A stretch of 39,180 bases of DNA from Shigella phage ESh3. Location: sequence record ON528717; one strand, 5' to 3'. The translations under genes were made by a program, and so were the position numbers. Position 1 is the first letter of the stretch; each line of letters begins with the position of its first letter. The notes under the pieces were generated by a model that saw nothing but the letters and a program-made list of their open reading frames with translations, ran no database searches and had not been told where the DNA came from. Positions 4,449-38,967 of the stretch are shown here, in pieces.

Positions 4449-4706
4449 ATGGGACGCTTATACAGTGGGAACTTGAATGACTTCAAGGCTGCTTGCAACA
4501 GGCTCTACCAGTTGGACTTTGCTGTTATAGCTGTTGAGAAGGAAGGTTCACCAAACATAAAGGCAACCATGTACCTTCGGATTGAAGACCGTACTGGGCG
4601 AATGGTGGTTCAGGAAGAGATTCACCACTGCGACGAAGATGTTCTGTACAATATGTGCACTGAGTGGCTGAACCGTATGTACGACCAGTTGAAGGACTGG
4701 AAGTAA
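4449..4706 (+). CDS. 1.2: gene 1.2, host dGTPase (Dgt) inhibitor homologue
   Basis: 85-aa ORF MGRLYSGNL...MYDQLKDWK; conserved N and C termini, central part diverged from recalled T7 gp1.2. Confidence 0.85.
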   Translation: MGRLYSGNLNDFKAACNRLYQLDFAVIAVEKEGSPNIKATMYLRIEDRTGRMVVQEEIHHCDEDVLYNMCTEWLNRMYDQLKDWK

Positions 4707-4726
4707 TACGACTCACTAAAGGAAGA
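4704..4726 (+). promoter_or_regulatory. phage RNAP class II promoter (phi1.3 position), here immediately upstream of the HNH ORF
   Basis: TAATACGACTCACTAAAGGAAGA; overlaps gene 1.2 stop. Confidence 0.8.
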
Positions 4727-4731
4727 AACCA

Positions 4732-5145
4732 ATGAACGACATAAAGCGATTCAACGATAAGACCGAACCATGTGGTGACTGTTTGCGTTGGATTGGTAGC
4801 ATCCAGCCTAATGGCTACGGACGGTTTCGCCTGCATGGTAAGCCTATGTATGCCCATAGGGCTTCGTACATTCTGTTCAACGGTGAGTTGAATAATGGTG
4901 ATGTAGTCCTACACTCCTGTGACAATAGATGGTGTGTAAATCCGGCACACCTAATCAAGGGCACACAGGCAGATAACCTTATAGACATGGCTATCAAAGG
5001 CCGTGGCGCTAGAAAGATAACTAATGAGCAGGTCGAGATGATACGTATGGACCCTCGCTCCGGCAGGGAGCTAGCAAGGGTACTTAATGTAGCTGCTTCG
5101 ACAATAAGCCACATACGAAACGGTAAACTGAGGAAATATATATGA
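4732..5145 (+). CDS. free-standing HNH homing-type endonuclease (zinc-finger HNH with C-terminal helix-turn-helix)
   Basis: 137 aa; Cys14/Cys17 (PCGDCLRW), NGYGR, HR, HSCDNRWCVNPAHL HNH core, C-terminal LARVLNVAASTISHIRNGK; stop overlaps ligase start (ATGA). Confidence 0.85.
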   Translation: MNDIKRFNDKTEPCGDCLRWIGSIQPNGYGRFRLHGKPMYAHRASYILFNGELNNGDVVLHSCDNRWCVNPAHLIKGTQADNLIDMAIKGRGARKITNEQVEMIRMDPRSGRELARVLNVAASTISHIRNGKLRKYI

Positions 5146-6224
5146 TTATCAACTTTAAGACTTCACCATACAAGGCAGTATCTTTCGTAGAGTCTGCCAT
5201 CAAGAAAGCTCTGGATAACGCTGGGTATCTTATCGCTGACATTAAGTACGATGGTGTCCGTGGTAACATCTGCGTAGACAATACCGCTAACTGCTGCTGG
5301 CTCTCTCGTGTGTCTAAAACGATTCCGGCACTGGAGCACCTAAACGGATTTGATGTTCGCTGGAAGCGCCTACTGAACGATGACCGTTGCTTCTACAAAG
5401 ATGGTTTTATGTTAGATGGGGAACTCATGGTCAAAGGCGTAGACTTTAACACAGGGTCCGGCCTACTGCGTACCAAATGGACTGACACCAAGAACCAAGA
5501 GTTCCACGAAGAGTTATTCGTTGAGCCAATCTGTAAGAAAGATAAGGTTCCCTTTAAGCTACACACTGGACACCTTCACGTCAAACTGTACGCTATCCTC
5601 CCGCTGCACATAGTAGAGTCTGGAGAAGACTGTGACGTTATGACGTTGCTCATGCAGGAACACGTTAAGAACATGCTGCCTCTGCTACAGGAATACTTCC
5701 CTGAAATCGAATGGCAAGCGGCTGAGTCTTACGAGGTTTACGACATGGTGGAACTACAGCAACTGTACGAGAAGAAGCGTGAAGAAGGGAACGAGGGTCT
5801 AATTGTGAAAGACCCGATGTGTGTCTATAAGCGCGGTAAGAAGTCAGGCTGGTGGAAAATGAAACCTGAGAACGAAGCTGACGGCATCATTCAAGGTCTG
5901 GTATGGGGTACGAAAGGTCTGGCTAATGAAGGCAAAGTGATTGGTTTTGAGGTGCTTCTTGAGAGTGGTCGTTTAGTTAACGCCACGAATATCTCTCGCG
6001 CCTTAATGGATGAGTTCACTGAGACAGTAAAAGAGGCCACCCTAAGTCAATGGGGATTCTTTAGCCCATACGGTATTGGCGACAATGATGCCTGTACGAT
6101 TAACCCTTACGATGGCTGGGCGTGTCAAATCAGCTACATGGAGGAAACACCTGACGGCTCTCTACGTCACCCATCGTTCGTAATGTTCCGTGGCACAGAG
6201 GACAACCCTCAAGAGAAAATGTAA
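5142..6224 (+). CDS. 1.3: gene 1.3 ATP-dependent DNA ligase
   Basis: 360 aa, KYDGVRG adenylation motif (IKYDGVRGNI), near-identical to recalled T7 ligase. Confidence 0.97.
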   Translation: MIINFKTSPYKAVSFVESAIKKALDNAGYLIADIKYDGVRGNICVDNTANCCWLSRVSKTIPALEHLNGFDVRWKRLLNDDRCFYKDGFMLDGELMVKGVDFNTGSGLLRTKWTDTKNQEFHEELFVEPICKKDKVPFKLHTGHLHVKLYAILPLHIVESGEDCDVMTLLMQEHVKNMLPLLQEYFPEIEWQAAESYEVYDMVELQQLYEKKREEGNEGLIVKDPMCVYKRGKKSGWWKMKPENEADGIIQGLVWGTKGLANEGKVIGFEVLLESGRLVNATNISRALMDEFTETVKEATLSQWGFFSPYGIGDNDACTINPYDGWACQISYMEETPDGSLRHPSFVMFRGTEDNPQEKM

Positions 6225-7807: not shown

Positions 7808-8506
7808 ATGGCTAAGAAGATTTTCACCTCTGCGCTTGGCACTGCTGAACCTTACGCTTACCTCTCTAAGCCGGACTACGGTAACGAAGAGCGTGGCTTT
7901 GGGAACCCTCGCGGTGTCTACAAAGTTGACCTGACTATTCCCAACAAAGACCCGCGCTGCCAGCGTATGGTCGATGAAATCGTGAAGTGCCACGAAGAGG
8001 CTTATGCTGCTGCCGTTGAGGAATACGAAGCTAACCCGCCTGCTGTAGCTCGTGGTAAGAAACCGCTGAAACCATATGAAGGCGACATGCCGTTCTTCGA
8101 TAACGGTGACGGCACGACTACCTTTAAGTTCAAATGCTACGCGTCTTTCCAAGACAAGAAAACCAAAGAGACCAAGCACATCAATCTGGTTGTGGTTGAC
8201 TCCAAGGGCAAGAAGATGGAAGACGTTCCTATTATCGGTGGTGGCTCTAAACTGAAAGTCAAATACTCTCTGGTTCCCTACAAGTGGAACACGGCTGTAG
8301 GTGCGAGCGTTAAGCTGCAACTGGAATCCGTGATGCTGGTCGAACTGGCTACCTTTGGCGGTGGTGAAGACGATTGGGCTGACGAAGTTGAAGAGAACGG
8401 CTATGTTGCCTCTGGTTCTGCCAAAGCGAGCAAACCACGCGACGAAGAAAGCTGGGACGAAGACGACGAAGGCTCTTACGAAGAAGACTCAGACGGAGAC
8501 TTCTAA
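7808..8506 (+). CDS. 2.5: gene 2.5 single-stranded DNA-binding protein
   Basis: 232 aa MAKKIFTSALGTAEPYAYLSKPDYGNEERGFGNPRGVYKVDL..., acidic C-terminal tail ending ...EEDSDGDF. Confidence 0.95.
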   Translation: MAKKIFTSALGTAEPYAYLSKPDYGNEERGFGNPRGVYKVDLTIPNKDPRCQRMVDEIVKCHEEAYAAAVEEYEANPPAVARGKKPLKPYEGDMPFFDNGDGTTTFKFKCYASFQDKKTKETKHINLVVVDSKGKKMEDVPIIGGGSKLKVKYSLVPYKWNTAVGASVKLQLESVMLVELATFGGGEDDWADEVEENGYVASGSAKASKPRDEESWDEDDEGSYEEDSDGDF

Positions 8507-8962
8507 GTGGCTGGCGCATACGCTGCGCGTGGTATCAGAAAGGTCGGGACATTCCGTTCCGGCCTAGAAGATAAGGTCTCTAAGCAGCTAGAGGGTAAGG
8601 GCATTAAGTTCGACTATGAACTGTGGAAAATCCCTTACGTTGTCCCTGCGAGCAACCATGTGTATACTCCAGACTTCCTGCTGCCTAACGGAATCTTTAT
8701 TGAAACCAAAGGTTTATGGGAGAGTGACGACCGAAAGAAACACTTACTGATTCGCGAACAGTTTCCCGAACTGGACATCCGTCTGGTGTTCTCAAGCTCA
8801 CGCACTAAGCTGTATAAAGGGTCTCCTACCAGTTATGGTGAGTGGTGTGAGAAGCACGGTATTCTGTTTGCTGACAAATTAATTCCTGTAGAATGGCTCA
8901 AAGAACCCAAAAAGGAGGTGCCATTTGACAAGCTGAAACAATCGAAGGGAGGAAAGAAATAA
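8507..8962 (+). CDS. 3: gene 3 endonuclease I (Holliday-junction resolvase), apparent GTG start
   Basis: 151 aa MAGAYAARGIRKVGTFRSGLEDKVSKQLEGKGIKF...PDFLLPNGIFIETKGLWESDDRKKHLLIREQ; starts directly after 2.5 stop. Confidence 0.9.
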   Translation: MAGAYAARGIRKVGTFRSGLEDKVSKQLEGKGIKFDYELWKIPYVVPASNHVYTPDFLLPNGIFIETKGLWESDDRKKHLLIREQFPELDIRLVFSSSRTKLYKGSPTSYGEWCEKHGILFADKLIPVEWLKEPKKEVPFDKLKQSKGGKK

Positions 8963-9417
8963 TGGCTCGTGTACAGTTTAAACAACGTGAATCTACTGAC
9001 GCAATCTTTGTTCACTGCTCGGCTACTAAGCCAAGTCAGAATGTAGGAGTTCGCGAGATTCGGCAGTGGCATAAAGAGCAGGGTTGGCTTGATGTAGGGT
9101 ATCACTTTATCATCAAGAGAGATGGTACTGTGGAGGAAGGCCGAGATGAGATGGCTGTAGGCTCTCACGTTAAGGGACACAACCACAACTCTATTGGCGT
9201 CTGCCTTGTAGGTGGTATCGACGATAAAGGTAAGTTTGACGCTAACTTTACGCCAGCCCAAATGCAATCCCTTCGCTCACTGCTTGTCACACTGCTGGCT
9301 AAGTACGAAGGTGCTGTGCTTCGGGCGCATCATGATGTGGCACCTAAGGCTTGCCCATCGTTCGACCTTAAGCGTTGGTGGGAGAAGAACGAACTGGTCA
9401 CTTCTGACCGTGGATAA
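8962..9417 (+). CDS. 3.5: gene 3.5 lysozyme (N-acetylmuramoyl-L-alanine amidase; inhibitor of phage RNAP)
   Basis: 151 aa MARVQFKQRESTDAIFVHCSATKPSQNVGVREIRQWHKEQGWLDVGYHFII... Confidence 0.95.
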   Translation: MARVQFKQRESTDAIFVHCSATKPSQNVGVREIRQWHKEQGWLDVGYHFIIKRDGTVEEGRDEMAVGSHVKGHNHNSIGVCLVGGIDDKGKFDANFTPAQMQSLRSLLVTLLAKYEGAVLRAHHDVAPKACPSFDLKRWWEKNELVTSDRG

Positions 9418-9418
9418 T

Positions 9419-9441
9419 TAATTAAACTCACTAAAGGGAGA
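9419..9441 (+). promoter_or_regulatory. phage RNAP class II promoter (phi3.8-type variant), here directly upstream of gene 4
   Basis: TAATTAAACTCACTAAAGGGAGA; differs from consensus at -13, -12, -11 and -2. Confidence 0.7.
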
Positions 9442-9473
9442 CCACAACGGTTTCCCTTTGTTCGCAATGTTGA

Positions 9474-11223
<1,750 letters not shown>

Positions 11224-11235
11224 AGGAGACACATC

Positions 11236-11448
11236 ATGTTCAAACTGATTAAGAAATTAGGCCAACTGCTGGTTCGCATGTACAACGTGGAAGCCAAACG
11301 ACTGAACGATGAGGCCCGTAAAGAGGCCACACAGTCACGCGCTCTGGCGATTCGCTCCAACGAACTGGCTGACAGTGCGTCCACCAAAGTTACCGAAGCT
11401 GCTCGTGTAGCGAACCAAGCTCAACAGCTTTCCAAATTCTTTGAGTAA
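11236..11448 (+). CDS. 4.3: gene 4.3, unknown function
   Basis: 70-aa ORF MFKLIKKLGQLLVRMYNVEAKRLNDEARKEATQS... Confidence 0.8.
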   Translation: MFKLIKKLGQLLVRMYNVEAKRLNDEARKEATQSRALAIRSNELADSASTKVTEAARVANQAQQLSKFFE

Positions 11449-11467
11449 TCAAACAGGAGAAACCATT

Positions 11468-11737
11468 ATGTCAAATGTAGCTGAAACTATTCGCCTATCC
11501 GATACGGCTGACCAGTGGAATCGTCGAGTCCACATCAATGTCCGCAACGGCAAGGCGACTATGGTCTATCGTTGGAAGGACTCTAAGTCCTCTAAGAATC
11601 ACACTCAGCGTATGACGTTGACAGATGAGCAAGCACTTCGTCTGGTTAATGCGCTTACCAAAGCTGCCGTGACAGCAATCCATGAGGCTGGTCGCGTCAA
11701 TGAAGCTATGGCTATCCTCGACAAGATTGATAGCTAA
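11468..11737 (+). CDS. 4.5: gene 4.5 (in T7, inhibitor of Lon-dependent toxin-antitoxin activation)
   Basis: 89 aa MSNVAETIRLSDTADQWNRRVHINVRNGKATMVYRWKDSKSSKNHTQRMTL...; RBS aggaga 7 nt upstream of ATG 11468. Confidence 0.8.
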   Translation: MSNVAETIRLSDTADQWNRRVHINVRNGKATMVYRWKDSKSSKNHTQRMTLTDEQALRLVNALTKAAVTAIHEAGRVNEAMAILDKIDS

Positions 11738-12236: not shown

Positions 12237-14351
12237 ATGATCGTTTCTGACATCGAAGCTAACGCCCTCTTAGAGAGCGTCACTAAGTTCCACTGCGGGG
12301 TTATCTACGACTACTCCACCGCTGAGTACGTAAGTTACCGCCCGAGTGACTTCGGTGCGTATCTGGATGCGCTGGAAGCCGAGGTTGCACGAGGCGGTCT
12401 TATTGTGTTCCACAACGGTCACAAGTATGACGTTCCTGCATTGACCAAACTGGCAAAGCTACAATTGAACCGAGAGTTCCACCTTCCTCGTGAGAACTGT
12501 ATTGACACCCTAGTGCTGTCACGCTTGATTCACTCCAACCTAAAGGACACCGATATGGGTCTTCTGCGTTCCGGCAAGTTGCCAGGTAAACGCTTTGGGT
12601 CTCACGCTTTGGAGGCGTGGGGCTATCGCTTAGGTGAAATGAAGGGTGAATACAAAGATGACTTTAAGCGTATGCTTGAAGAGCAGGGTGAAGAATACGT
12701 TGACGGAATGGAGTGGTGGAACTTCAACGAAGAGATGATGGACTATAACGTTCAGGACGTTGTGGTCACTAAAGCTCTCCTTGAGAAGCTACTATCTGAC
12801 AAACATTACTTCCCTCCTGAGATTGACTTCACGGACGTAGGATACACTACGTTCTGGTCAGAATCCCTTGAGGCCGTTGACGTTGAACATCGTGCTGCAT
12901 GGCTGCTCGCTAAGCAAGAGCGCAATGGGTTCCCGTTTGACACGAAAGCAATCGAAGAGTTGTACGTAGAGTTAGCTGCTAGACGCTCTGAGTTACTACG
13001 TAAATTGACCGAAACGTTCGGCTCGTGGTATCAGCCTAAAGGTGGCACTGAGATGTTCTGCCATCCGCGAACAGGTAAGCCGCTACCTAAGTACCCTCGC
13101 ATTAAGACACCTAAAGTTGGTGGAATCTTTAAGAAGCCTAAGAACAAGGCACAGCGAGAAGGCCGTGAGCCTTGCGAACTGGATACCCGCGAGTACGTTG
13201 CTGGTGCTCCTTATACTCCAGTGGAGCACGTAGTGTTTAACCCTTCGTCTCGTGACCACATTCAGAAGAAACTCCAAGAGGCTGGATGGGTCCCGACCAA
13301 GTACACCGATAAGGGTGCTCCTGTGGTGGACGATGAGGTACTCGAAGGTGTTCGTGTAGATGACCCTGAGAAGCAAGCTGCTATCGACCTCATTAAAGAG
13401 TACTTGATGATTCAGAAGCGAATCGGACAGTCTGCTGAGGGAGACAAGGCATGGCTTCGTTATGTTGCTGAGGACGGTAAGATTCATGGTTCTGTTAACC
13501 CTAATGGGGCGGTTACTGGGCGTGCGACTCATGCGTTCCCCAACCTTGCGCAAATTCCGGGTGTACGTTCTCCTTATGGAGAGCAGTGTCGTGCTGCTTT
13601 TGGTGCTGAGCACCATTTGGATGGGATAACTGGTAAGCCTTGGGTTCAGGCTGGTATAGACGCCTCAGGTCTGGAGTTGCGCTGCTTGGCCCACTTCATG
13701 GCTCGCTTTGATAACGGTGAGTATGCTCACGAGATTCTTAATGGTGACATCCACACGAAGAACCAGATGGCTGCTGAATTACCTACCCGTGATAACGCTA
13801 AGACGTTCATTTATGGGTTCCTTTATGGTGCTGGTGACGAGAAGATTGGGCAGATTGTTGGTGCTGGTAAAGAGCGCGGTAAGGAACTCAAGAAGAAATT
13901 CCTTGAGAACACCCCTGCGATTGCAGCACTCCGCGAATCTATCCAACAGACACTTGTCGAGTCCTCTCAGTGGGTGGCTGGCGAACAGCGAGTCAAATGG
14001 AAACGCCGTTGGATTAAAGGTCTGGATGGTCGTAAAGTACACGTTCGTAGTCCTCACGCTGCCTTGAATACCCTACTGCAATCTGCTGGTGCCCTCATCT
14101 GCAAACTGTGGATTATCAAGACCGAAGAGATGCTTGTAGAGAAAGGCTTGAAGCATGGCTGGGACGGTGACTTTGCGTACATGGCATGGGTACACGATGA
14201 AATCCAAGTAGGTTGCCGTACCGAAGAGATTGCTCAGGCGGTCATTGAGACCGCACAAGAGGCGATGCGCTGGGTTGGAGACCACTGGAACTTCCGGTGC
14301 CTTCTGGATACCGAAGGTAAGATGGGTCCTAATTGGGCCGTATGTCACTGA
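12237..14351 (+). CDS. 5: gene 5 DNA polymerase (family A, with 3'-5' exonuclease and thioredoxin-binding domain)
   Basis: 704 aa [36 protein letters not shown]...; same length as T7 DNAP. Confidence 0.98.
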
Positions 14352-14370
14352 TTCTATAGGAGAAATTATT

Positions 14371-14670
14371 ATGGCTATGACAAAGAAATTTAAAGTGTCC
14401 TTCGACGTTACCGCCAAGATGTCGTCTGACGTTCAGGCAATCTTGGAGAAAGATATGCTGCATTTGTGCAAGCAGGTAGGCTCAGGTGCGATTGTTCCCA
14501 ATGGCAAACAGAAGGAAATGATTGTCCAGTTCCTGACACATGGTATGGAAGGCCTGATGACATTCGTAGTACGGACAGCATTTCGTGAGGCCATCAAGGA
14601 CATGCACGAAGAGTATTCCGATAAGGATTCTTTCAAACTCTCTCCCGCGACTGTACGGGAGGTGTTCTAA
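14371..14670 (+). CDS. 5.5: gene 5.5 (in T7, H-NS-binding protein)
   Basis: 99 aa MAMTKKFKVSFDVTAKMSSDVQAILEKDMLHLCKQVGSGAIVPNGKQKEMIVQF... Confidence 0.9.
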   Translation: MAMTKKFKVSFDVTAKMSSDVQAILEKDMLHLCKQVGSGAIVPNGKQKEMIVQFLTHGMEGLMTFVVRTAFREAIKDMHEEYSDKDSFKLSPATVREVF

Positions 14671-14786
14671 TGACTATCCGACGTATCAAGAATAAAAAGG
14701 AGTGCGACCACTCTTTCATAGTCAAGGGGGTCGTTGGTTTTTGCTGCCGAGAGTGTATCAAATGCGGATATTTTGAGGTGATGTGA
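14670..14786 (+). CDS. 38-codon Cys-rich micro-ORF (candidate zinc-ribbon peptide), coupled between 5.5 and 5.7
   Basis: MTIRRIKNKKECDHSFIVKGVVGFCCRECIKCGYFEVM; ATG overlaps 5.5 stop (TAATG) and its stop overlaps 5.7 start (TGATG). Confidence 0.5.
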   Translation: MTIRRIKNKKECDHSFIVKGVVGFCCRECIKCGYFEVM

Positions 14787-14995
14787 TGAGTGAATATCTT
14801 AAAGTGCTGCAAGCAATCAAAAGTTGCCCTAAGACTTTCCAGTCCAACTATGTACGGAACAATGCGAGCCTCGTAGCTGAGGCCGCTTCCCGTGGCCACA
14901 TCTCATGTCTGACTACGAGTGGACGTAACGGTGGCGCTTGGGAAATCACTGCTTCCGGTACTCGCTTTCTGAAACGAATGGGAGGGTGTGTCTGA
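14786..14995 (+). CDS. 5.7: gene 5.7 (in T7, inhibitor of sigmaS-RNA polymerase)
   Basis: 69 aa MSEYLKVLQAIKSCPKTFQSNYVRNNASLVAEAASRGHISCLTTSGRNGGAWEITASGTRFLKRMGGCV. Confidence 0.85.
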   Translation: MSEYLKVLQAIKSCPKTFQSNYVRNNASLVAEAASRGHISCLTTSGRNGGAWEITASGTRFLKRMGGCV

Positions 14996-16240: not shown

Positions 16241-16495
16241 ATGTTAACACCTATTAACCATTTACTTAAGAACCCTAACGATATTCCAGATGTACCTCGT
16301 GCAACCGCTGAGTATCTACAGGTTCGATTCAATTATGCGTACCTCGAAGCGTCTGGTCATATAGGACTTATGCGTGCTAATGGCTGTAGTGAAGCCCACA
16401 TCTTGGGTTTCATTCAGGGCCTACAGTATGCCTCTAACGTCATTGACGAGATTGAGCTACGCAAGGAACAACTAAGAGATGATGGGGAGGATTGA
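16241..16495 (+). CDS. 6.5: gene 6.5, unknown function
   Basis: 84-aa [33 protein letters not shown]... Confidence 0.8.
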
Positions 16496-16499
16496 CCTT

Positions 16500-16766
16500 A
16501 TGTGTTTCTCACCGAAAGTTAAAGTTCCGAAGATGGATACCAATCAGATTCGAGCCGTTGAGCCAGCGCCCCTGACCCAAGAAGTGTCAAGCGTAGAGTT
16601 CGGTGGGTCTTCTGATGAGACGGATACCGAAGGCACCGAAGTGTCTGGACGCAAAGACCTCAAGGTCGAACGCGATGATTCCGTAGCGAAGTCTAAAGCC
16701 AACGGCACTGGCTCCGCTCGTATGAAGTCTTCAATCCGTAAGTCTGCATTTGGAGGCAAGAAGTGA
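16500..16766 (+). CDS. 6.7: gene 6.7, small virion/ejected protein
   Basis: 88 aa MCFSPKVKVPKMDTNQIRAVEPAPLTQEVSSVEFGGSSDETD...; track ORF begins earlier at 16479. Confidence 0.8.
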   Translation: MCFSPKVKVPKMDTNQIRAVEPAPLTQEVSSVEFGGSSDETDTEGTEVSGRKDLKVERDDSVAKSKANGTGSARMKSSIRKSAFGGKK

Positions 16767-17167
16767 TGTCTGAGTTCACATGTGTGGAAGCTGAGAGTCG
16801 CTTCCGTGCAATCCGGTGGACTGTGGAACACCTTGGGTTGCCTAAGGGATTTGAAGGACACTTTGTGGGCTACAGCCTCTACGTAGACGAAGTGATGGAC
16901 ATGTCTGGTTGCCGTGAAGAGTACATTCTTGACTCTACAGGAAAACATGTAGCGTACTTCGCGTGGTGCGTAAGCTGTGACATTCACCATAAGGGAGACA
17001 TTCTGGACGTTACGTCCGTTGTTATTAATCCTGAGGCAGACTCTAAGGGCTTACAGCGATTCATGGCGAAACGCTTTAAGAACCTTGCAGAACTCCATGA
17101 TTGCAATTGGGTGTCCCGCTGTAAACATGAAGGCGAGACAATGCGTGTATACTTTAAGGAGGTATAA
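16766..17167 (+). CDS. 7: gene 7, virion protein
   Basis: 133 aa MSEFTCVEAESRFRAIRWTVEHLGLPKGFEGHF...; ATG overlaps 6.7 stop. Confidence 0.85.
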   Translation: MSEFTCVEAESRFRAIRWTVEHLGLPKGFEGHFVGYSLYVDEVMDMSGCREEYILDSTGKHVAYFAWCVSCDIHHKGDILDVTSVVINPEADSKGLQRFMAKRFKNLAELHDCNWVSRCKHEGETMRVYFKEV

Positions 17168-17170
17168 GTT

Positions 17171-17491
17171 ATGGGTAAGAAAATCAAGAAGGCCGTGAAG
17201 AAAGTCACCAAGCCAATTACGAAAGCCGTGAAGAAAGTTACCAAGGAAGTGGCCCGTCCGGTTAAACAGGTTGCTGGTGCGCTGGCTGGTGGAGCTGGTG
17301 AAGCACAGGTAGTGGAAGTACCACAACCAACGGCTGCTGCAACCCCTGCTGCACAGATTGTGGACGTACCTGAGAAAGAGGTTTCCACTGAGGACGAAGC
17401 ACAGACAGAAAGCGGACGCCGAAAAGCTCGTGCTGGTGGTAAGAAGTCCTTGAGTGTAGCCCGTAGCTCCGGTGGCGGCATCAATATTTAA
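17171..17491 (+). CDS. 7.3: gene 7.3, tail assembly / ejected protein
   Basis: 106 aa MGKKIKKAVKKVTKPITKAVKKVTKEVARPVKQVAG..., Lys-rich repeats. Confidence 0.85.
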   Translation: MGKKIKKAVKKVTKPITKAVKKVTKEVARPVKQVAGALAGGAGEAQVVEVPQPTAAATPAAQIVDVPEKEVSTEDEAQTESGRRKARAGGKKSLSVARSSGGGINI

Positions 17492-17505
17492 ACAGGAGGT
17501 GACAC

Positions 17506-19116
17506 ATGGCTGAGAAGCGTACAGGTCTAGCCGAGGAAGGAGCAAAGTCGGTTTATGAGCGATTAAAGAACGACCGCGCTCCTTATGAGACTCGTGCTCA
17601 AAACTGCGCTCAGTACACCATTCCGTCCCTCTTCCCTAAGGACTCCGATAACTCATCCACAGACTACACAACTCCGTGGCAAGCTGTGGGTGCCCGTGGT
17701 CTCAATAACTTAGCCTCTAAGCTCATGCTGGCTCTATTCCCGATGCAAACGTGGATGAAGCTGACCATCTCTGAGTTCGAGGCTAAACAGTTACTGAATG
17801 ACCCCGATGGACTCGCTAAGGTAGATGAGGGTCTCTCAATGGTAGAGCGTATCATCATGAACTACATTGAGTCGAACAGCTACCGAGTGACTCTCTTTGA
17901 GGCTCTCAAGCAGTTAGTCGTAGCAGGTAACGTCCTGCTGTACCTACCGGAACCAGAAGGGTCAAACTACAATCCCATGAAGCTGTACCGATTGTCTTCT
18001 TATGTGGTCCAACGAGACGCATTCGGCAACGTTCTGCAAATGGTGACTCGTGACCAGATAGCTTTTGGTGCTCTCCCTGAGGACATCCGTAAGGCTGTAG
18101 AAGGTCAAGGCGGTGAGAAGAAAGCTGATGAGACCGTCGATGTGTACACTCACGTCTATCTGGATGAGGACTCAGGTGAATACCTCCGATACGAAGAGGT
18201 TGAGGGAATGGAAGTACAAGGCTCCGATGGGACTTACCCTAAAGAGGCTTGCCCATACATCCCGATTCGAATGGTTCGGCTCGACGGTGAATCCTACGGT
18301 CGTTCGTACATTGAGGAATACTTAGGTGACTTACGGTCCCTTGAGAATCTACAAGAGGCCATCGTCAAGATGTCCATGATTAGCTCTAAGGTTATCGGCT
18401 TAGTGAATCCTGCTGGTATCACCCAGCCACGCCGACTGACCAAAGCCCAGACTGGTGACTTCGTTACTGGTCGTCCAGAAGACATCTCGTTCCTCCAACT
18501 GGAGAAGCAAGCGGACTTTACTGTAGCCAAGGCTGTCAGTGACGCTATTGAGGCGCGCCTTTCGTTTGCCTTTATGTTGAACTCTGCGGTTCAGCGCACA
18601 GGTGAACGTGTGACCGCCGAAGAGATTCGGTATGTAGCTTCTGAACTTGAAGATACTTTAGGTGGTGTCTACTCTATCCTTTCTCAAGAATTACAATTGC
18701 CTCTGGTACGAGTGCTCTTGAAGCAACTACAAGCCACGCAACAGATTCCTGAGTTACCTAAGGAAGCCGTAGAGCCAACCATTAGTACAGGTCTGGAAGC
18801 AATCGGTCGAGGCCAAGACCTTGATAAGCTGGAACGCTGTGTCACTGCGTGGGCTGCTCTAGCTCCTATGCGTGATGACCCTGACATCAACCTTGCGATG
18901 ATTAAGTTGCGCATTGCGAACGCTATTGGTATTGACACTTCTGGTATTCTACTCACCGAAGAACAGAAGCAACAGAAGATGGCCCAACAGTCTATGCAAA
19001 TGGGTATGGATAATGGTGCTGCTGCACTGGCCCAAGGTATGGCTGCACAAGCTACAGCTTCACCTGAGGCTATGGCTGCTGCCGCTGATTCCGTAGGTTT
19101 ACAGCCGGGCATTTAA
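17506..19116 (+). CDS. 8: gene 8 portal (head-tail connector) protein
   Basis: 536 aa MAEKRTGLAEEGAKSVYERLKNDRAPYETRAQNCAQYTIPSLFP... Confidence 0.97.
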   Translation: MAEKRTGLAEEGAKSVYERLKNDRAPYETRAQNCAQYTIPSLFPKDSDNSSTDYTTPWQAVGARGLNNLASKLMLALFPMQTWMKLTISEFEAKQLLNDPDGLAKVDEGLSMVERIIMNYIESNSYRVTLFEALKQLVVAGNVLLYLPEPEGSNYNPMKLYRLSSYVVQRDAFGNVLQMVTRDQIAFGALPEDIRKAVEGQGGEKKADETVDVYTHVYLDEDSGEYLRYEEVEGMEVQGSDGTYPKEACPYIPIRMVRLDGESYGRSYIEEYLGDLRSLENLQEAIVKMSMISSKVIGLVNPAGITQPRRLTKAQTGDFVTGRPEDISFLQLEKQADFTVAKAVSDAIEARLSFAFMLNSAVQRTGERVTAEEIRYVASELEDTLGGVYSILSQELQLPLVRVLLKQLQATQQIPELPKEAVEPTISTGLEAIGRGQDLDKLERCVTAWAALAPMRDDPDINLAMIKLRIANAIGIDTSGILLTEEQKQQKMAQQSMQMGMDNGAAALAQGMAAQATASPEAMAAAADSVGLQPGI

Positions 19117-19215: not shown

Positions 19216-20130
19216 ATGGCTGAATCTAATGCAGACGTATATGCATCTTTTGGCGTGAACTCCGCTGTGATGTCTGGTGGTTCCGTTGAGGAACATGAAC
19301 AGAACATGCTGGCTCTTGATGTTGCTGCCCGTGATGGCGATGATGCAATCGAGTTAGCGCCCGACGAAGTGGAAACAGAACGAGACCTGTATGACAACTC
19401 TGACCCATTCGGTCAAGAGGATGATGAGGGTCGCATTCAGGTTCGTATTGGTGATGGCTCTGAGCCGACCGATGTTGACACTGGGGAAGAAGGCGTTGAG
19501 GGTTCCGAAGAGTTTACCCCACTGGGTGAGACTCCAGAAGAACTGGTAGCTGCCTCTGAGCAACTTGGTGAGCACGAAGAGGGCTTCCAAGAGATGATTA
19601 ACATTGCTGCCGAGCGTGGCATGAGCGTCGAGACCATCGAGGCCATCCAGCGTGAGTACGAGGAGAACGAAGAGTTATCCGCTGAGTCCTACGCTAAGCT
19701 GGCTGAAATTGGTTACACGAAGGCTTTCATCGACTCGTACATTCGCGGTCAAGAAGCTCTGGTGGAGCAGTACGTAAACAGTGTCATTGAGTATGCTGGT
19801 GGTCGTGAGAGTTTTGACGCACTGTATAATCACCTTGAGACGCACAACCCTGAGGCTGCACAGTCGCTGGACAATGCGTTGACCAATCGTGACTTAGCGA
19901 CCGTTAAGGCTATCATCAACTTGGCTGGTGAGTCTCGCGCTAAGGCGTTTGGCCGTAAACCAACTCGTAGCGTGACAAATCGTGCTATTCCGGCTAAACC
20001 TCAAGCTACCAAGCGTGAAGGCTTTGCGGACCGTAGCGAGATGATTAAAGCTATGAGTGACCCACGGTATCGCACAGATGCCAACTATCGTCGTCAAGTC
20101 GAACAGAAAGTAATCGACTCGAACTTCTGA
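19216..20130 (+). CDS. 9: gene 9 capsid assembly (scaffolding) protein
   Basis: 304 aa, highly acidic, MAESNADVYASFGVNSAVMSGGSVEEHEQNMLALDVAARDGDDAIEL... Confidence 0.95.
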   Translation: MAESNADVYASFGVNSAVMSGGSVEEHEQNMLALDVAARDGDDAIELAPDEVETERDLYDNSDPFGQEDDEGRIQVRIGDGSEPTDVDTGEEGVEGSEEFTPLGETPEELVAASEQLGEHEEGFQEMINIAAERGMSVETIEAIQREYEENEELSAESYAKLAEIGYTKAFIDSYIRGQEALVEQYVNSVIEYAGGRESFDALYNHLETHNPEAAQSLDNALTNRDLATVKAIINLAGESRAKAFGRKPTRSVTNRAIPAKPQATKREGFADRSEMIKAMSDPRYRTDANYRRQVEQKVIDSNF

Positions 20131-20143
20131 TAGACTCTGAAAT

Positions 20144-20166
20144 TAATACGACTCACTATAGGGAGA
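20144..20166 (+). promoter_or_regulatory. phage RNAP promoter phi10 (class III) followed by the gene 10 translation leader
   Basis: TAATACGACTCACTATAGGGAGACCACAACGGGTTTCCCTCTAGAAA...TTTAACTTTAAGAAGGAGA. Confidence 0.92.
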
Positions 20167-20225
20167 CCACAACGGGTTTCCCTCTAGAAATCATTATTGT
20201 TTAACTTTAAGAAGGAGACATACAT

Positions 20226-21257
20226 ATGGCTACTATGACTGGTGGACAGCAACTGGGTACTAACCAAGGTAAAGGTCAAAGTGCTGGTGATAAACTGGCG
20301 CTGTTCTTGAAGGTATTTGGTGGTGAAGTCCTGACTGCATTCGCTCGTACCTCTGTGACCACTTCTCGCCACATGACCCGTTCCATCTCCAGCGGTAAAT
20401 CCGCTCAGTTCCCTGTACTGGGTCGCACTCAGGCAGCTTACTTGTCTCCGGGTGAGAACCTCGATGATATTCGTAAAGACATCAAACACACCGAGAAGAC
20501 CATCACCATTGATGGCCTCCTGACGGCAGACGTTCTGATTTACGACATTGAGGACGCGATGAACCACTACGACGTTCGCTCTGAGTATACCTCCCAGTTG
20601 GGTGAGTCTCTAGCGATGGCTGCGGATGGTGCGGTTCTGGCGGAGATTGCTGGTCTGTGTAACTTGGCGAGCGCCTATAACGAGAACATTGAGGGCTTAG
20701 GTACCGCAACTGTAATTGCGACCACTCAGGACAAGGCTACACTTACCGACCAAGTTGCGCTGGGTAAGGAGATTATTGCAGCACTGACCAAGGCTCGTGC
20801 GGCTCTGACCAAGAACTACGTTCCGGCTGCTGACCGTGTGTTCTACTGTGACCCAGATAGCTATTCTGCGATTCTGGCAGCACTGATGCCGAACGCGGCA
20901 AACTACGCTGCTCTTATTGACCCTGAGAAGGGTTCTATCAGAAACGTTATGGGCTTCGAGGTTGTAGAAGTTCCTCACCTCACCGCTGGTGGCGCTGGCA
21001 CCTCTCGTGCGGATGCAACTGGTCAGAAACATTCCTTCCCTGCGTCTCATGATAGCACCAACAAGGTTGCTAAGGACAATGTTATTGGCCTGTTCATGCA
21101 CCGCTCTGCGGTAGGTACTGTTAAACTGCGTGACTTGGCTCTGGAGCGCGCTCGCCGTGCTAACTTCCAAGCTGACCAGATTATCGCTAAGTACGCAATG
21201 GGCCATGGTGGTCTGCGCCCAGAAGCTGCTGGTGCTGTGGTTTTCAAGACGGAGTAA
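20226..21257 (+). CDS. 10A: gene 10A major capsid protein
   Basis: 343 aa MATMTGGQQLGTNQGKGQSAGDKLALFLKVFGGEVLTAFARTSVTTSRHM... Confidence 0.97.
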   Translation: MATMTGGQQLGTNQGKGQSAGDKLALFLKVFGGEVLTAFARTSVTTSRHMTRSISSGKSAQFPVLGRTQAAYLSPGENLDDIRKDIKHTEKTITIDGLLTADVLIYDIEDAMNHYDVRSEYTSQLGESLAMAADGAVLAEIAGLCNLASAYNENIEGLGTATVIATTQDKATLTDQVALGKEIIAALTKARAALTKNYVPAADRVFYCDPDSYSAILAALMPNAANYAALIDPEKGSIRNVMGFEVVEVPHLTAGGAGTSRADATGQKHSFPASHDSTNKVAKDNVIGLFMHRSAVGTVKLRDLALERARRANFQADQIIAKYAMGHGGLRPEAAGAVVFKTE

Positions 21258-31879: not shown

Positions 31880-33709
31880 ATGGCTAACGTAATTAAAACC
31901 GTTTTGACTTACCCGTTAGATGGTTCCAATCGTGATTTTAATATCCCGTTTGAGTATCTAGCCCGTAAGTTCGTAGTGGTAACTCTTATCGGTGTAGACC
32001 GCAAGGTCCTTACGATTAATACAGACTATCGTTTTGCTACGCGTACTACAATCTCACTGACCAAGGCTTGGGGTCCAGCCGATGGCTATACTCTCATAGA
32101 GCTACGTCGAGTAACCTCCACGACCGACCGCTTGGTTGACTTTACTGACGGCTCAATCCTCCGTGCGTATGACCTTAACGTTGCTCAGATTCAAACAATG
32201 CACGTAGCAGAAGAAGCTCGTGACCTAACTGCTGATACCATTGGTGTCAATAACGACGGTCACTTGGATGCCCGTGGTCGTCGCATCGTGAACGTAGCGG
32301 ATGGTATTGAACCAGGCGATGCAATAACTCTAGGTCAAGTCACGCGGTGGAATGATTCTGCCCTGAACTCAAAGAACGCCGCAAAGGTCTCTGAGACAAA
32401 CGCTAAGGATTCCGAGAACAAGGCGAAAGCGTCTGAGACCAATGCAAAGAACTCTGAGAACCTAGCTCACGATTGGGCGCAGAAGTCCGAGGACTCTCCG
32501 GTGACTGGCTCTGAATATTCCGCTTACCATTATTCCCGTAAGTCGTCAGCTAGTGCTAATGCGGCTGCTTCGAGTGCTGCTGCAAGTCTGTCCTCACAGA
32601 ACGCTGCGAAGGTCTCCGAGGATAACGCCAAGGTCTCAGAGACAAACGCTAAGGCTTCTGAGGTTTCCGCTAAGGATGATGCTGATAGAGCAGAACGTGA
32701 GGCAGATAAGCTGGGTAACATGAATGCCCTTGCTGAGGCAATAGAGACAGTACAAGATGGTTATGTGCTCTGGAAGAACCACGTAAGGACAAAGAGTGGA
32801 AACGTGTTTGCGGAACGGTGGTTTGATGTAGAACCCGCATTTAACGAGTATTATGCTTCGAGTTTGCTGATTGCGACTTATCGTATTAGCGGTATTGAGA
32901 GACTTACTACAGCACTGTATACTGAGGGTAATTGGGGGCAGGGCGCTACCGAGCGCGGGACGATTGCCATACTTCGCAGGAATGGTGGTAACGAACTCAC
33001 TGGTGGCGCCTATTTCCACTTTTACCCAAATGGCTCTTTCTACTCTAATACCCACTCAGCGATGGGATGGCAAGGTGGTTGGGAGGACGTAGCAAGAGAA
33101 CCTCATCGCGCACCATTCAGAGTAAACGATGTTGTTAATAACAATGGCGGGTTTGTTCCTGCCTTAACTTGTTACAGCGTGTCCACTGGGGGGTATCCTC
33201 TTCGCTTCACAACTGGTATCATTTCCAATGGAACAGGGAATTGGCCTGAGGCTGTAATTGCACGCATGGACGGAGATAATAACCATTCGGCGACTTACCA
33301 GTGCCAGATGGGAGGCGGGATTTACGCGTGGATGAGATCATATGATGGGTCTGTTCGCGGGATCTCGTTCGCCGTAGAACCACAGTCAGATGCGCGCCTT
33401 AAGACTGTTCATGGTCGGTTGGATACCAAACTACCACTAAGTAACATTGAGTCTATGAACTTTGTTGAGTTTACCTTTAACTACGACAAGAAGGAAGCAA
33501 TACGCCGTGGAGTCATTGCACAGGAACTACAGAAGATTGACCCAGAGTACGTCCACAAAAAGGTGTATAAGATCGGTGGTGGGGAGGAAATGGAAATCCT
33601 TCAGTTAGACCTTACACCAATGACTCTGGATGCACTAGCCGCAATCCAAGAGTTGTCGAATCAAGTTAAAGAACTCAAGGCAGAACTTAAACAAATCAAG
33701 GGAGACTAA
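31880..33709 (+). CDS. 17: gene 17 tail fibre, mosaic: T7-like N-terminal attachment domain, different distal domain, C-terminal intramolecular chaperone
   Basis: 609 aa; N-terminus MANVIKTVLTYPLDGSNRDFNIPFEYLARKFVVVTLIGVDRKV... matches T7 gp17, homology lost after about residue 140. Confidence 0.92.
   Translation: MANVIKTVLTYPLDGSNRDFNIPFEYLARKFVVVTLIGVDRKVLTINTDYRFATRTTISLTKAWGPADGYTLIELRRVTSTTDRLVDFTDGSILRAYDLNVAQIQTMHVAEEARDLTADTIGVNNDGHLDARGRRIVNVADGIEPGDAITLGQVTRWNDSALNSKNAAKVSETNAKDSENKAKASETNAKNSENLAHDWAQKSEDSPVTGSEYSAYHYSRKSSASANAAASSAAASLSSQNAAKVSEDNAKVSETNAKASEVSAKDDADRAEREADKLGNMNALAEAIETVQDGYVLWKNHVRTKSGNVFAERWFDVEPAFNEYYASSLLIATYRISGIERLTTALYTEGNWGQGATERGTIAILRRNGGNELTGGAYFHFYPNGSFYSNTHSAMGWQGGWEDVAREPHRAPFRVNDVVNNNGGFVPALTCYSVSTGGYPLRFTTGIISNGTGNWPEAVIARMDGDNNHSATYQCQMGGGIYAWMRSYDGSVRGISFAVEPQSDARLKTVHGRLDTKLPLSNIESMNFVEFTFNYDKKEAIRRGVIAQELQKIDPEYVHKKVYKIGGGEEMEILQLDLTPMTLDALAAIQELSNQVKELKAELKQIKGD
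32370..32690 (+). repeat. imperfect tandem 21-nt (heptad) repeats encoding the (A/S)ETNAK(x) coiled-coil shaft of the tail fibre
   Basis: Two blocks: AAKVSETNAKDSENKAKASETNAKNSEN and AAKVSEDNAKVSETNAKASEVSAKDDAD, visible at nucleotide level (gtctctgagacaaacgctaagg twice). Confidence 0.6.
33386..33709 (+). other. C-terminal intramolecular chaperone / peptidase S74-type self-cleaving domain of the tail fibre (predicted cleavage at Ser503)
   Basis: SDARLK motif (Ser503, Lys508) followed by ...LSNIESMNFVEF..., IRRGVIAQELQKIDPEYV and a C-terminal helical segment QELSNQVKELKAELKQIKGD. Confidence 0.6.
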
Positions 33710-37181: not shown

Positions 37182-37347
37182 TCTCACAGTGTACGGACCT
37201 AAAGTTCCCCCATAGGGGTACCTAAAGCCCAGCCAATCACCTTGAGTCAACTTTCAGTTGACCTTGAGGGTTCCCTAGGGTTGGGGTTGGTCCCTTGGGG
37301 TTTACCTTGAGTGTCTCTTCTTGTCCCTATCTGTTCAGTCTCCTAAA
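37182..37347 (+). repeat. direct terminal repeat of the linear genome (single collapsed copy); physical genome ends lie here
   Basis: Begins TCTCACAGTGTACGGACCTAAAGTTCCCCCATAGGGG and ends ..CTGTTCAGTCTCCTAAA, colinear with the recalled 160-bp T7 terminal repeat. Confidence 0.6.
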
Positions 37348-38448: not shown

Positions 38449-38603
38449 TGGCTAACAACAACACGCAATACGGTCTGACCGCTCAAACTGTACTGTTTTA
38501 TAGTGACATGGTGCGCTGTGGGTTTAACTGGTCGCTCGCAATGACACACCTTAAGGAACTGTACGAAAACAACAAGGCAATCGCTCTAGAATCTGCTGAG
38601 TGA
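38448..38603 (+). CDS. 0.4: gene 0.4 (in T7, inhibitor of FtsZ / cell division)
   Basis: 51 aa [51 protein letters not shown]; ATG overlaps ocr stop. Confidence 0.85.
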   Translation: MANNNTQYGLTAQTVLFYSDMVRCGFNWSLAMTHLKELYENNKAIALESAE

Positions 38604-38607
38604 TAGG

Positions 38608-38650
38608 CTCAAGGTCGCTCCTAACGAGTGGCCTTTATGATTATCACTTA
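38608..38650 (+). promoter_or_regulatory. RNase III-type site (R0.5), copy a of a 43-bp direct repeat
   Basis: ctcaaggtcgctcctaacgagtggcctttatgattatcactt. Confidence 0.6.
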
Positions 38651-38671
38651 ACTTGCAGTAGGACTAACATC

Positions 38672-38872
38672 ATGAGTAAACTTTTGGCAACCTCCAAAAT
38701 CAAAGGCCAATGCACTGTGACACTGCGTGAGTATTACCACGGGTCTATGGGAAGCACCTACGTTGTACGATACGGTAAACAGGTAACACATTGGGTAAAC
38801 CCGATTTTGGCGCAAGAAGAGTATCAAGCCTGTGTGATACACCAAGCAACATGTGCAGGCTGGAATGATTGA
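38672..38872 (+). CDS. 66-aa early accessory ORF of unknown function, bracketed by the duplicated R site
   Basis: MSKLLATSKIKGQCTVTLREYYHGSMGSTYVVRYGKQVTHWVNPILAQEEYQACVIHQATCAGWND; track ORF starts at 38600, ATG 38672 chosen because it follows R site copy a. Confidence 0.6.
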   Translation: MSKLLATSKIKGQCTVTLREYYHGSMGSTYVVRYGKQVTHWVNPILAQEEYQACVIHQATCAGWND

Positions 38873-38924
38873 CAACACTATTTGCACTAACTGGACATAG
38901 CCTTCGAGTCTACCCAGTGATAAA

Positions 38925-38967
38925 CTCAAGGTCGCTCCTAGCGAGTGGCCTTTATGATTATCACTTT
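38925..38967 (+). promoter_or_regulatory. RNase III-type site, copy b of the 43-bp direct repeat (42/43 identical to copy a)
   Basis: ctcaaggtcgctcctagcgagtggcctttatgattatcactt; upstream gtgata also shared with copy a. Confidence 0.6.

Follow-up and report, generated by a model that had tools for sequence, protein, structure and literature searches.

In Shigella phage ESh3, gene 2.5, which encodes the ssDNA-binding protein (7808-8506, + strand; 97% identical to T7 gp2.5 over 232 aa by tblastn), is followed directly by gene 3, which encodes endonuclease I (8507-8962, + strand). In the window, as we call the whole 39,180-bp stretch of ESh3 DNA that was analysed, the gene 2.5 stop codon TAA occupies 8504-8506 and the gene 3 start codon GTG occupies 8507-8509, with no spacer between them (0 nt), and an SD-like GGAGA at 8495-8499, within the last codons of gene 2.5, serves gene 3. 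The window sequence across this junction is GACGGAGACTTCTAAGTGGCT. The hexamer TAAGTG (8504-8509, + strand) is common to the window and T7; its GTG is the start codon of gene 3 in the former and of gene 2.8 in the latter, in which gene 3 is started instead from a GGGAGG...ATG furnished by the 3' end of 2.8. ESh1 (ON528715.1), 13a and phiA1122 have an identical junction; it reads TAAATG in Serratia phage vB_SmaP-UFV01 (hereafter UFV01) and TAATG in T3.

Two other junctions of the window, identified from the sequence and by blastn, are similarly compact. At the 5/5.5 junction (14349-14373, + strand), the gene 5 stop codon TGA (14349-14351) is separated from the gene 5.5 ATG (14371) by a 19-nt spacer containing AGGAGA at 14358-14363; it is inside this spacer that T7 carries its 5.3 cassette, with an SD of its own, and T3 carries an unrelated HNH gene, also named 5.3, at the same point. 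At the 7.3/8 junction (17489-17508, + strand), a 14-nt spacer containing AGGAGG at 17494-17499 lies between the gene 7.3 stop codon TAA (17489-17491) and the gene 8 ATG (17506). This AGGAGG serves gene 8 in the window and 7.7 in T7, in which the end of 7.7 gives gene 8 the element GGAGA...TAATG. The sequence-only reading of this DNA had placed three compact junctions at these positions and had stated that T7 carries genes 2.8, 5.3 and 7.7 there; both points were confirmed, the former by the sequence together with tblastn gene identities and the latter by the T7 record NC_001604, in which 2.8 (9857-10276), 5.3 (16483-16839) and 7.7 (19848-20240) occupy the same junctions. In addition, the whole-genome alignment to T7 that this reading had proposed, with a tabulation of 2.8, 3.8, 5.3 and 7.7, found all four genes absent from the window and thereby added a fourth empty site, the 3.5/4 spacer (9418-9488, + strand; blastn), which in T7 is filled by gene 3.8. 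This 71-nt spacer has kept a T7-type promoter (9419-9441, equivalent to phi3.8) that directly precedes gene 4.

The window is a complete T7-like (Teseptimavirus) genome that is circularly permuted relative to the T7 map, starting inside gene 0.6 and with the T7 left end aligning at 37182 (blastn). Ten collinear blastn segments from the window cover T7, as expected of a member of Teseptimavirus, and 53 of the 56 T7 proteins have a counterpart in the window by tblastn, two of them matching a paralogous HNH protein only. Over aligned columns, nucleotide identity is 89.9% to T7 and 94.4% to ESh1, the closest record found. The T7 proteins encoded around the compact junctions are well conserved in part (gp5 99%, gp8 98.5%, gp5.5 97%, gp3 86% and gp7.3 76% by tblastn), and lower identity was also seen for gp0.7 (82%) and gp1.2 (60%). 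The most divergent core gene is gene 3, with approximately 74% nucleotide identity to T7. The tail fibre comprises 609 aa in the window and 553 aa in T7; its N-terminal part is approximately 60% identical to that of T7, and no match to the T7 fibre was detectable beyond it. The window also carries two specific inserts relative to T7, of 318 and 116 nt, and a 38-aa ORF at 14670-14786 without a match in Pfam or PHROGs. With 89.9% nucleotide identity overall and approximately 74% in gene 3, the earlier description of the core replication and morphogenesis genes as near-identical to those of T7 was overstated. Its companion statement, that endonuclease content is the main variable between the two phages, holds for gene presence and absence, since 5 of the 10 indels that span 40 nt or more, and 1848 of the 2480 indel bases (approximately 75%), are due to endonuclease genes, but not overall, given the differences in the tail fibre, gp1.2, gp0.7, gp7.3 and the two inserts.

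At the four slots, the indels between the window and T7 are exactly bounded and ORF-sized, as judged from blastn breakpoints and junction sequences: window positions 8510/8531, 9469/9504, 14352/14354 and 17500/17506 correspond to T7 positions 9860/10278, 11213/11586, 16468/16834 and 19843/20240, respectively. Displaced orthologues of 2.8, 3.8, 5.3 and 7.7 were not detected elsewhere in the window (tblastn, E <= 0.01). Neither gp3.8 nor gp5.3 had a single tblastn match in it, and gp2.8 and gp7.7 matched only the HNH gene at 4732, a paralogue with 39% identity. Homologues of these T7 genes elsewhere in the genome had been named as the finding that would overturn the earlier reading, and this paralogue, the only one recovered, had already been taken into account there.

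The T7 genes in question belong to two nuclease classes. T7 gp2.8, gp3.8 and gp7.7 match Pfam HNH_3 (E = 7e-6 to 3e-15), with bit scores of 26.1, 56.0 and 49.8 against a curated cut-off of 24.8, whereas the only match of T7 gp5.3 is PDDEXK_5 (E = 1e-10; 42.1 bits against a cut-off of 26.1); gp5.3 matched no HNH profile and showed no blastp similarity to any HNH protein of the panel. The earlier suggestion that at least some of the T7 genes are HNH-like is therefore correct for 2.8 and 7.7, as well as for 3.8, and incorrect for 5.3. The sole endonuclease gene of the window, located in the 1.2/1.3 slot (4732-5145, + strand), had been recognized as HNH from its sequence, and this assignment is borne out by an HNH_3 match (E = 1.5e-8; 34.6 bits). 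It starts 5 nt after the promoter phi1.3 (4704-4726), and its 3' end carries a GAGG SD for the ligase gene and overlaps the ligase start (ATGA at 5142). The encoded protein is 100% identical in ESh1 and 94% identical in Yersinia phage vB_YenP_WW2 (WW2).

Among annotated relatives, the occupancy of these slots is patchy. ESh1, WW2 and UFV01 resemble the window in that all four junctions are compact; ESh1 and WW2 also share with it a single HNH gene between 1.2 and 1.3, while UFV01 differs in carrying its one HNH gene between genes 1 and 1.1. ESh1 differs from the window in its gene 5.5 allele (56-67% identity) and in the absence of both inserts (318 and 116 nt). T7 carries 2.8, 3.8, 5.3 and 7.7. 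In 13a there are a different 3.8 (32% identical to that of T7), an HNH gene in a gene 5 intron, a different 7.7 (51%) and 19.4, and in phiA1122 there are HNH genes overlapping the 1.7/1.8 region and at 3/3.5, together with 3.8 (100% aa identity to that of T7) and 7.7 (99%); 2.5/3 and 5/5.5 are compact in both phages. T3 has only its HNH gene 5.3, unrelated to T7 5.3, and is compact at 2.5/3, 3.5/4 and 7.3/8. Thus, the same slot can hold differing nuclease genes, as in T3 and T7 at 5/5.5.

Junction scans with 1-kb probes against a phage collection, in which 45-60 rows were sampled of the 262-694 records per junction and the counts of filled sites are inflated by T7 laboratory derivatives, extended this picture. 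Among the sampled rows, 2.5/3 was interrupted in T7 records only, besides an additional 123 bp in one Klebsiella phage, and was contiguous in all other records with a match spanning the junction, including T3-like and Klebsiella phages. The 5/5.5 slot was filled in T7, PDP351P2 and PGX1. The 7.3/8 slot was filled in six natural lineages (T7, ESh2, HZ2R8, YpP-Y, phiA1122 and AH67C600_Q5) and empty in nine other natural Teseptimavirus-level phages, and 3.5/4 was empty in ESh1, EFA-2, CICC 80001 and EG1. Because compact junctions prevail both in the annotated relatives and in the sampled scans, the compact arrangement is the common, majority state and T7 is an unusual, heavily invaded genome. The sequence-only reading had presented the window as the phage lacking T7 genes, and this framing has to be reversed.

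The comparison of carriers and non-carriers by sliding-window identity, based on a seven-genome alignment, revealed a sharp divergence between the two groups immediately downstream of each HNH slot, with none elsewhere in the vicinity. Occupancy is accompanied by a linked flanking haplotype at 2.5/3, 3.5/4 and 7.3/8 and at the HNH gene of the window itself at 1.2/1.3, and each of these blocks is completely linked with occupancy and reaches from the insertion point 65-450 nt into the gene that follows. In the window, genes 3, 4 and 8 are of the endonuclease-free haplotype, and the ligase gene, which adjoins the window's HNH gene, is of the endonuclease-linked one.

In gene 3, the divergent block runs from the 2.5/3 junction to the 3/3.5 border, and 101 of the 108 T7-private differences over 7808-9417 fall inside the gene (8508-8962). 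The window-type gene 3 (8507-8962) is 97-100% identical to that of relatives without 2.8 and 72-75% identical to that of T7; the identity of T7 in this gene to the window and 13a, which belong to its own genus (74%), is even below that of T3 to the same two phages (79-80%). Apart from T7 records, only two records contained T7-type sequence of 2.8 plus gene 3 at 90% identity or more (one of them AH67C600_Q5, 91.5%); there were no matches at 80-90%, and the remaining records matched gene 3 alone, at approximately 70-74%. The 2.5/3 block is defined by one carrier lineage, T7, in the detailed alignment, with AH67C600_Q5 known from the 2.8 plus gene 3 sequence search only. At the next slot, the block linked to the absence of 3.8 comprises the end of the spacer and approximately the first 170 nt of gene 4 (9462-9661, + strand; multi-genome alignment). 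It contains 40 of the 42 carrier/non-carrier differences of the gene 4 region, and the sliding identity of the window within it is 50-81% to 3.8 carriers and 93-100% to non-carriers. The presence of the window HNH gene is linked to 13 fixed differences at 5144-5207, which covers roughly the initial 65 nt of the ligase gene. A wider stretch of low identity at this locus in the first multi-genome alignment (68-76% at 5050-5200) proved to be largely misaligned HNH sequence, the real linked block being the one of approximately 65 nt.

For the linkage at gene 8, eleven junction loci were added to the seven-genome alignment, and the natural phages compared comprised 10 with an empty and 7 with a filled slot. 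In the first 400 nt of gene 8 (nt 1-400), identity is 94.5% between empty alleles, 93.5% between filled alleles and 84.9% between empty and filled alleles, with ranges that do not overlap; over nt 401-780, the corresponding values are 93.2%, 92.4% and 92.7%. No occupancy-related identity structure was found in the upstream genes 7 and 7.3 of the same phages. The haplotype without 7.7 spans roughly 270 nt at the start of the window's gene 8 (17506-17775, + strand) and is set apart by 18 fixed differences from every phage with 7.7 in the set. These differences all lie at gene 8 nt 12-264, are densest at nt 96-126 (window 17601-17631) and are synonymous in 14 of the 16 codons concerned. Of the 19,448 possible 7/10 partitions of the phages, the occupancy partition alone yields more than one fixed difference; as these phages are related by descent, this count is to be read as a contrast with the neighbouring unstructured segments, which serve as the control, and not as a probability. 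With T3 as outgroup, 8 of the 18 sites are of the empty type, 8 are of the filled type and 2 have other states, which gives no polarity to the two haplotypes.

A different result was obtained at 5/5.5. A linked block was looked for there and none was found: only 9 T7-private differences are present, and the flanks are 95% and 91% identical to T7. The linked flanking haplotype, which is the homing signature of the other slots, is thus absent for the slot of gene 5.3.

The 3' end of each T7 HNH cassette supplies the downstream gene with a substitute ribosome-binding site and start, and genes 3 and 8 of the window are translated from the start region that has been taken over by the insert in T7. 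The window's HNH gene, with its SD for the ligase gene, is built in the same way. Natural phages and laboratory T7 clones without the inserted genes indicate that these are dispensable. In agreement with this, 3.8, 5.3 and 7.7 are seamlessly deletable and have been removed routinely (PMC12153263, PMC9825161), and 2.8, 3.8 and 7.7 of T7 have been treated as three HNH homing endonucleases whose triple deletion is viable (bioRxiv 10.1101/2025.09.07.674715). That closely related T7-like phages differ notably in whether they carry such genes has been described before (PMC4925675).

Taken as a whole, the slots display the features expected of empty sites of mobile genes, namely an exact ORF-sized indel, a nuclease-class ORF in the filled allele, patchy presence and dispensability. 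The junctions 2.5/3, 5/5.5 and 7.3/8, together with 3.5/4, are thus endonuclease-free alleles of recurrent insertion slots, in which the translational signals of the downstream essential genes are intact. Very probably, these short intergenic slots were invaded in T7 by the free-standing mobile HNH genes 2.8, 3.8 and 7.7 and by the PD-(D/E)XK gene 5.3, and the window lineage inherited the uninvaded alleles instead of deleting the T7-type ones. The compact junctions as such are an ordinary, already-known homing-endonuclease polymorphism, and ESh1 shows the same arrangement; the modest addition of our analysis is the haplotype blocks, which give testable predictions of targets.

Comparable arrangements are known from other phages. 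The free-standing genes of T4-type phages, SegG by gene 32 and MobE by nrdB, are like the T7 slots in being small nuclease genes that lie between conserved genes and are patchily present, and the accounts of these systems (PMC2988022, PMC2790892; for SegG via PMC10448857) indicate that their spread converts flanking markers and thereby generates linked haplotype tracts. For SegG and MobE, however, cleavage sites and marker exclusion have been experimentally established, whereas recipient-type alleles are all that the window displays. Within the T7 group, the 5/5.5 slot, empty in the window, contains in T3 the free-standing HNH gene 5.3, which shares 48% identity with the intron HNH of 13a. The T3 free-standing endonuclease gene is described as taking part in collaborative homing (PMC10448857, citing Bonocora & Shub 2009). 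The window differs from T3 and 13a in having neither HNH gene and no gene 5 intron, and T7 5.3 at this site is of the unrelated PD-(D/E)XK type. In ICP1 and other phages, homing endonuclease genes have been found to sit at the boundaries of genetic exchange (Barth, Dunham & Seed 2023, PMC10448857). The ICP1 case is similar in that nuclease genes adjoin essential genes and edge divergent segments, just as 2.8 and 3.8 bracket T7 genes 3 and 3.5, and it differs in concerning another phage group and in that the window is read from the endonuclease-free side.

An alternative hypothesis is that selection, and not selfish homing, governs the occupancy of the slots: the HNH genes would be kept or lost according to their benefit, for example in counteracting GAPS4-type defence systems, and the blocks would result from ordinary modular recombination. 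It finds backing in the reports that GAPS4 defence is weakened by a catalytically inactive T7 gp3.8 and that T7 without 2.8, 3.8 and 7.7 loses to the wild type only in the presence of GAPS4 (bioRxiv 10.1101/2025.09.07.674715). What this hypothesis leaves unexplained is why the blocks start exactly at the insertion point, run downstream only and consist mostly of synonymous differences, and why T7 and phiA1122, whose genomes each differ from the window by approximately 10%, have 3.8 and 7.7 proteins that are 100% and 99% identical. We therefore consider selection unlikely as a replacement for homing; the two can nevertheless both hold, as they are not mutually exclusive.

Another explanation is secondary loss, in which a T7-like ancestor with 2.8, 3.8, 5.3 and 7.7 would have lost these genes by precise deletion, for instance where selection favoured a genome that was smaller or faster. 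The dispensability of the genes speaks for this, as does the recovery upon serial passage of T7 derivatives without 5.3, 3.8 or 7.7. The product of such a loss can be seen in the laboratory T7 clone T7_300L (MZ375291.1), which has lost 7.7 and keeps T7-type flanks, its gene 8 allele being 100% identical to that of T7 and 85% identical to that of the window. By comparison, the 5' end of gene 8 in the window is 85% identical to T7 and 92-98% identical to other empty alleles, and genes 3, 4 and 8 of the window are of the separate, endonuclease-free haplotype. We also considered a recent-deletion derivative of a T7-type filled allele, which would combine an empty junction with T7-type flanks; the empty junctions of the window are instead flanked by sequence with 85% (gene 8) and 74% (gene 3) identity to T7. 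Because laboratory T7 deletion clones retain T7-type flanks, the window has not undergone a recent loss of the T7 gene at 7.3/8. Furthermore, the junctions match those of many relatives without the genes, including a member of another genus (T3) and, at 2.5/3, Klebsiella phages, and the spacers of 0, 14 and 19 nt contain no cassette remnant. The case of 5/5.5 is different, as the flanks there are T7-like (91-95%) and a T7-type 5.3 may have been lost from this slot. As a general explanation, secondary loss is quite improbable, and the inheritance of uninvaded alleles is favoured because the deletion pattern of T7_300L differs from that of the window and because empty junctions are widespread. 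Finally, an assembly collapse or mis-joined contigs at the compact junctions can be dismissed almost entirely: the circular permutation relative to the T7 map (left end at 37182) does point to a genome assembled from reads, but several independent records share these junction sequences, none of the flanking frames is disrupted and each ribosome-binding site is present.

The divergent blocks probably represent co-conversion tracts or cleavage-immunity polymorphisms, as are known for T4 free-standing endonuclease genes and for phage nuclease genes at boundaries of exchange (PMC2988022, PMC10448857). On this reading, gp2.8, gp3.8 and gp7.7 would be likely to target the endonuclease-free alleles of genes 3, 4 and 8, respectively, near their 5' ends, and in a mixed infection T7 could cut the alleles of the window and then convert them. 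We therefore propose tentatively, and with slightly less than even confidence, that the blocks at 8507-8962, 9462-9661 and 17506-17775 (the last being densest at 17601-17631) mark the recognition regions of the T7 HNH enzymes and that the window would carry cleavable alleles of all three. A published cleavage target for T7 gp2.8, gp3.8, gp5.3 or gp7.7 was not found in the literature searched. The proposal thus predicts, in testable form, the cutting positions of the T7 HNH enzymes. Should it be true, this phage would be a natural recipient for homing and marker-exclusion tests in the T7 group, and it could be used to test whether endonuclease-free phages are weaker against defences that sense DNA breaks, such as GAPS4. 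The window also constitutes a natural genome backbone with one such endonuclease gene only.

The comparison also bears on annotation. The HNH label is wrong for T7 gp5.3, the start of gene 3 in the window is GTG 8507, and the promoter known as phi3.8 in T7 directly serves gene 4 here.

The products of genes 3.8 and 7.7 of T7 (T7 11225-11590 and 19848-20240) are 100% and 99% identical, respectively, to their counterparts in phiA1122, although the T7 and phiA1122 genomes each differ from the window by approximately 10%, which suggests that these two HNH genes spread horizontally in the recent past. In addition, the 3/3.5 boundary of phiA1122 is occupied by an HNH gene (8369-8827 in phiA1122; aligned region of the window, 8950-9100), and downstream of it identity falls to 74% over roughly 150 nt at the start of gene 3.5. 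The downstream-block pattern, a divergent stretch just 3' of an occupied slot, recurs here at one more site.

Allelic variation was also found in genes 5.5 and 1.2. Two alleles of gene 5.5 (window 14371-14670) are present among the phages compared: one is common to the window, T7, 13a, UFV01 and WW2 (83-95% identity), and the other, with only 56-67% identity, is found in ESh1, the closest record found, and in phiA1122; this split shows no relation to the presence or absence of the endonuclease genes. The gene 1.2 product (window 4449-4706) is just 60% identical to that of T7, while at the nucleotide level the window allele is 90-96% identical to those of 13a, UFV01, ESh1 and WW2, indicating that T7 and phiA1122 harbor a different allele.

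The tail-fibre gene (window 31880-33709) probably represents the largest functional difference from T7, affecting host range. Its product is 609 aa long, compared with 553 aa in T7, and shows ~60% identity to the T7 protein across about the first 290 aa, beyond which similarity to the T7 tail fibre is undetectable.

Relative to T7, an insert of 116 nt lies between genes 5.5 and 5.7 (window 14675-14790) and encodes a 38-aa Cys-rich ORF (window 14670-14786; product MTIRRIKNKKECDHSFIVKGVVGFCCRECIKCGYFEVM) that overlaps the stop codon of gene 5.5 as well as the start of gene 5.7 and had no match in Pfam or PHROG. The insert was absent from all six panel genomes and present in only one of 186 matching records, MT350293.1 (92%). 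This record is named 'Enterococcus phage EFA-2', with Enterococcus faecalis as the stated host; it is 92-93% identical to the window Teseptimavirus in two core regions, and the host label looks doubtful.

A second insert, of 318 nt, is located between genes 0.4 and 0.5 (window 38648-38966); T7, ESh1, UFV01 and 13a are all without it, and the alignments of WW2 and phiA1122 also have gaps in this region. The associated ORF (window 38600-38872) matched PHROG 6500, a family of unknown function (E = 1e-44). Finally, at window 37182-37328 the right end of the T7 map meets its left end, and the ~150-bp terminal repeat is present there in a single copy; the window is thus a circularly permuted assembly rather than the packaged linear form.
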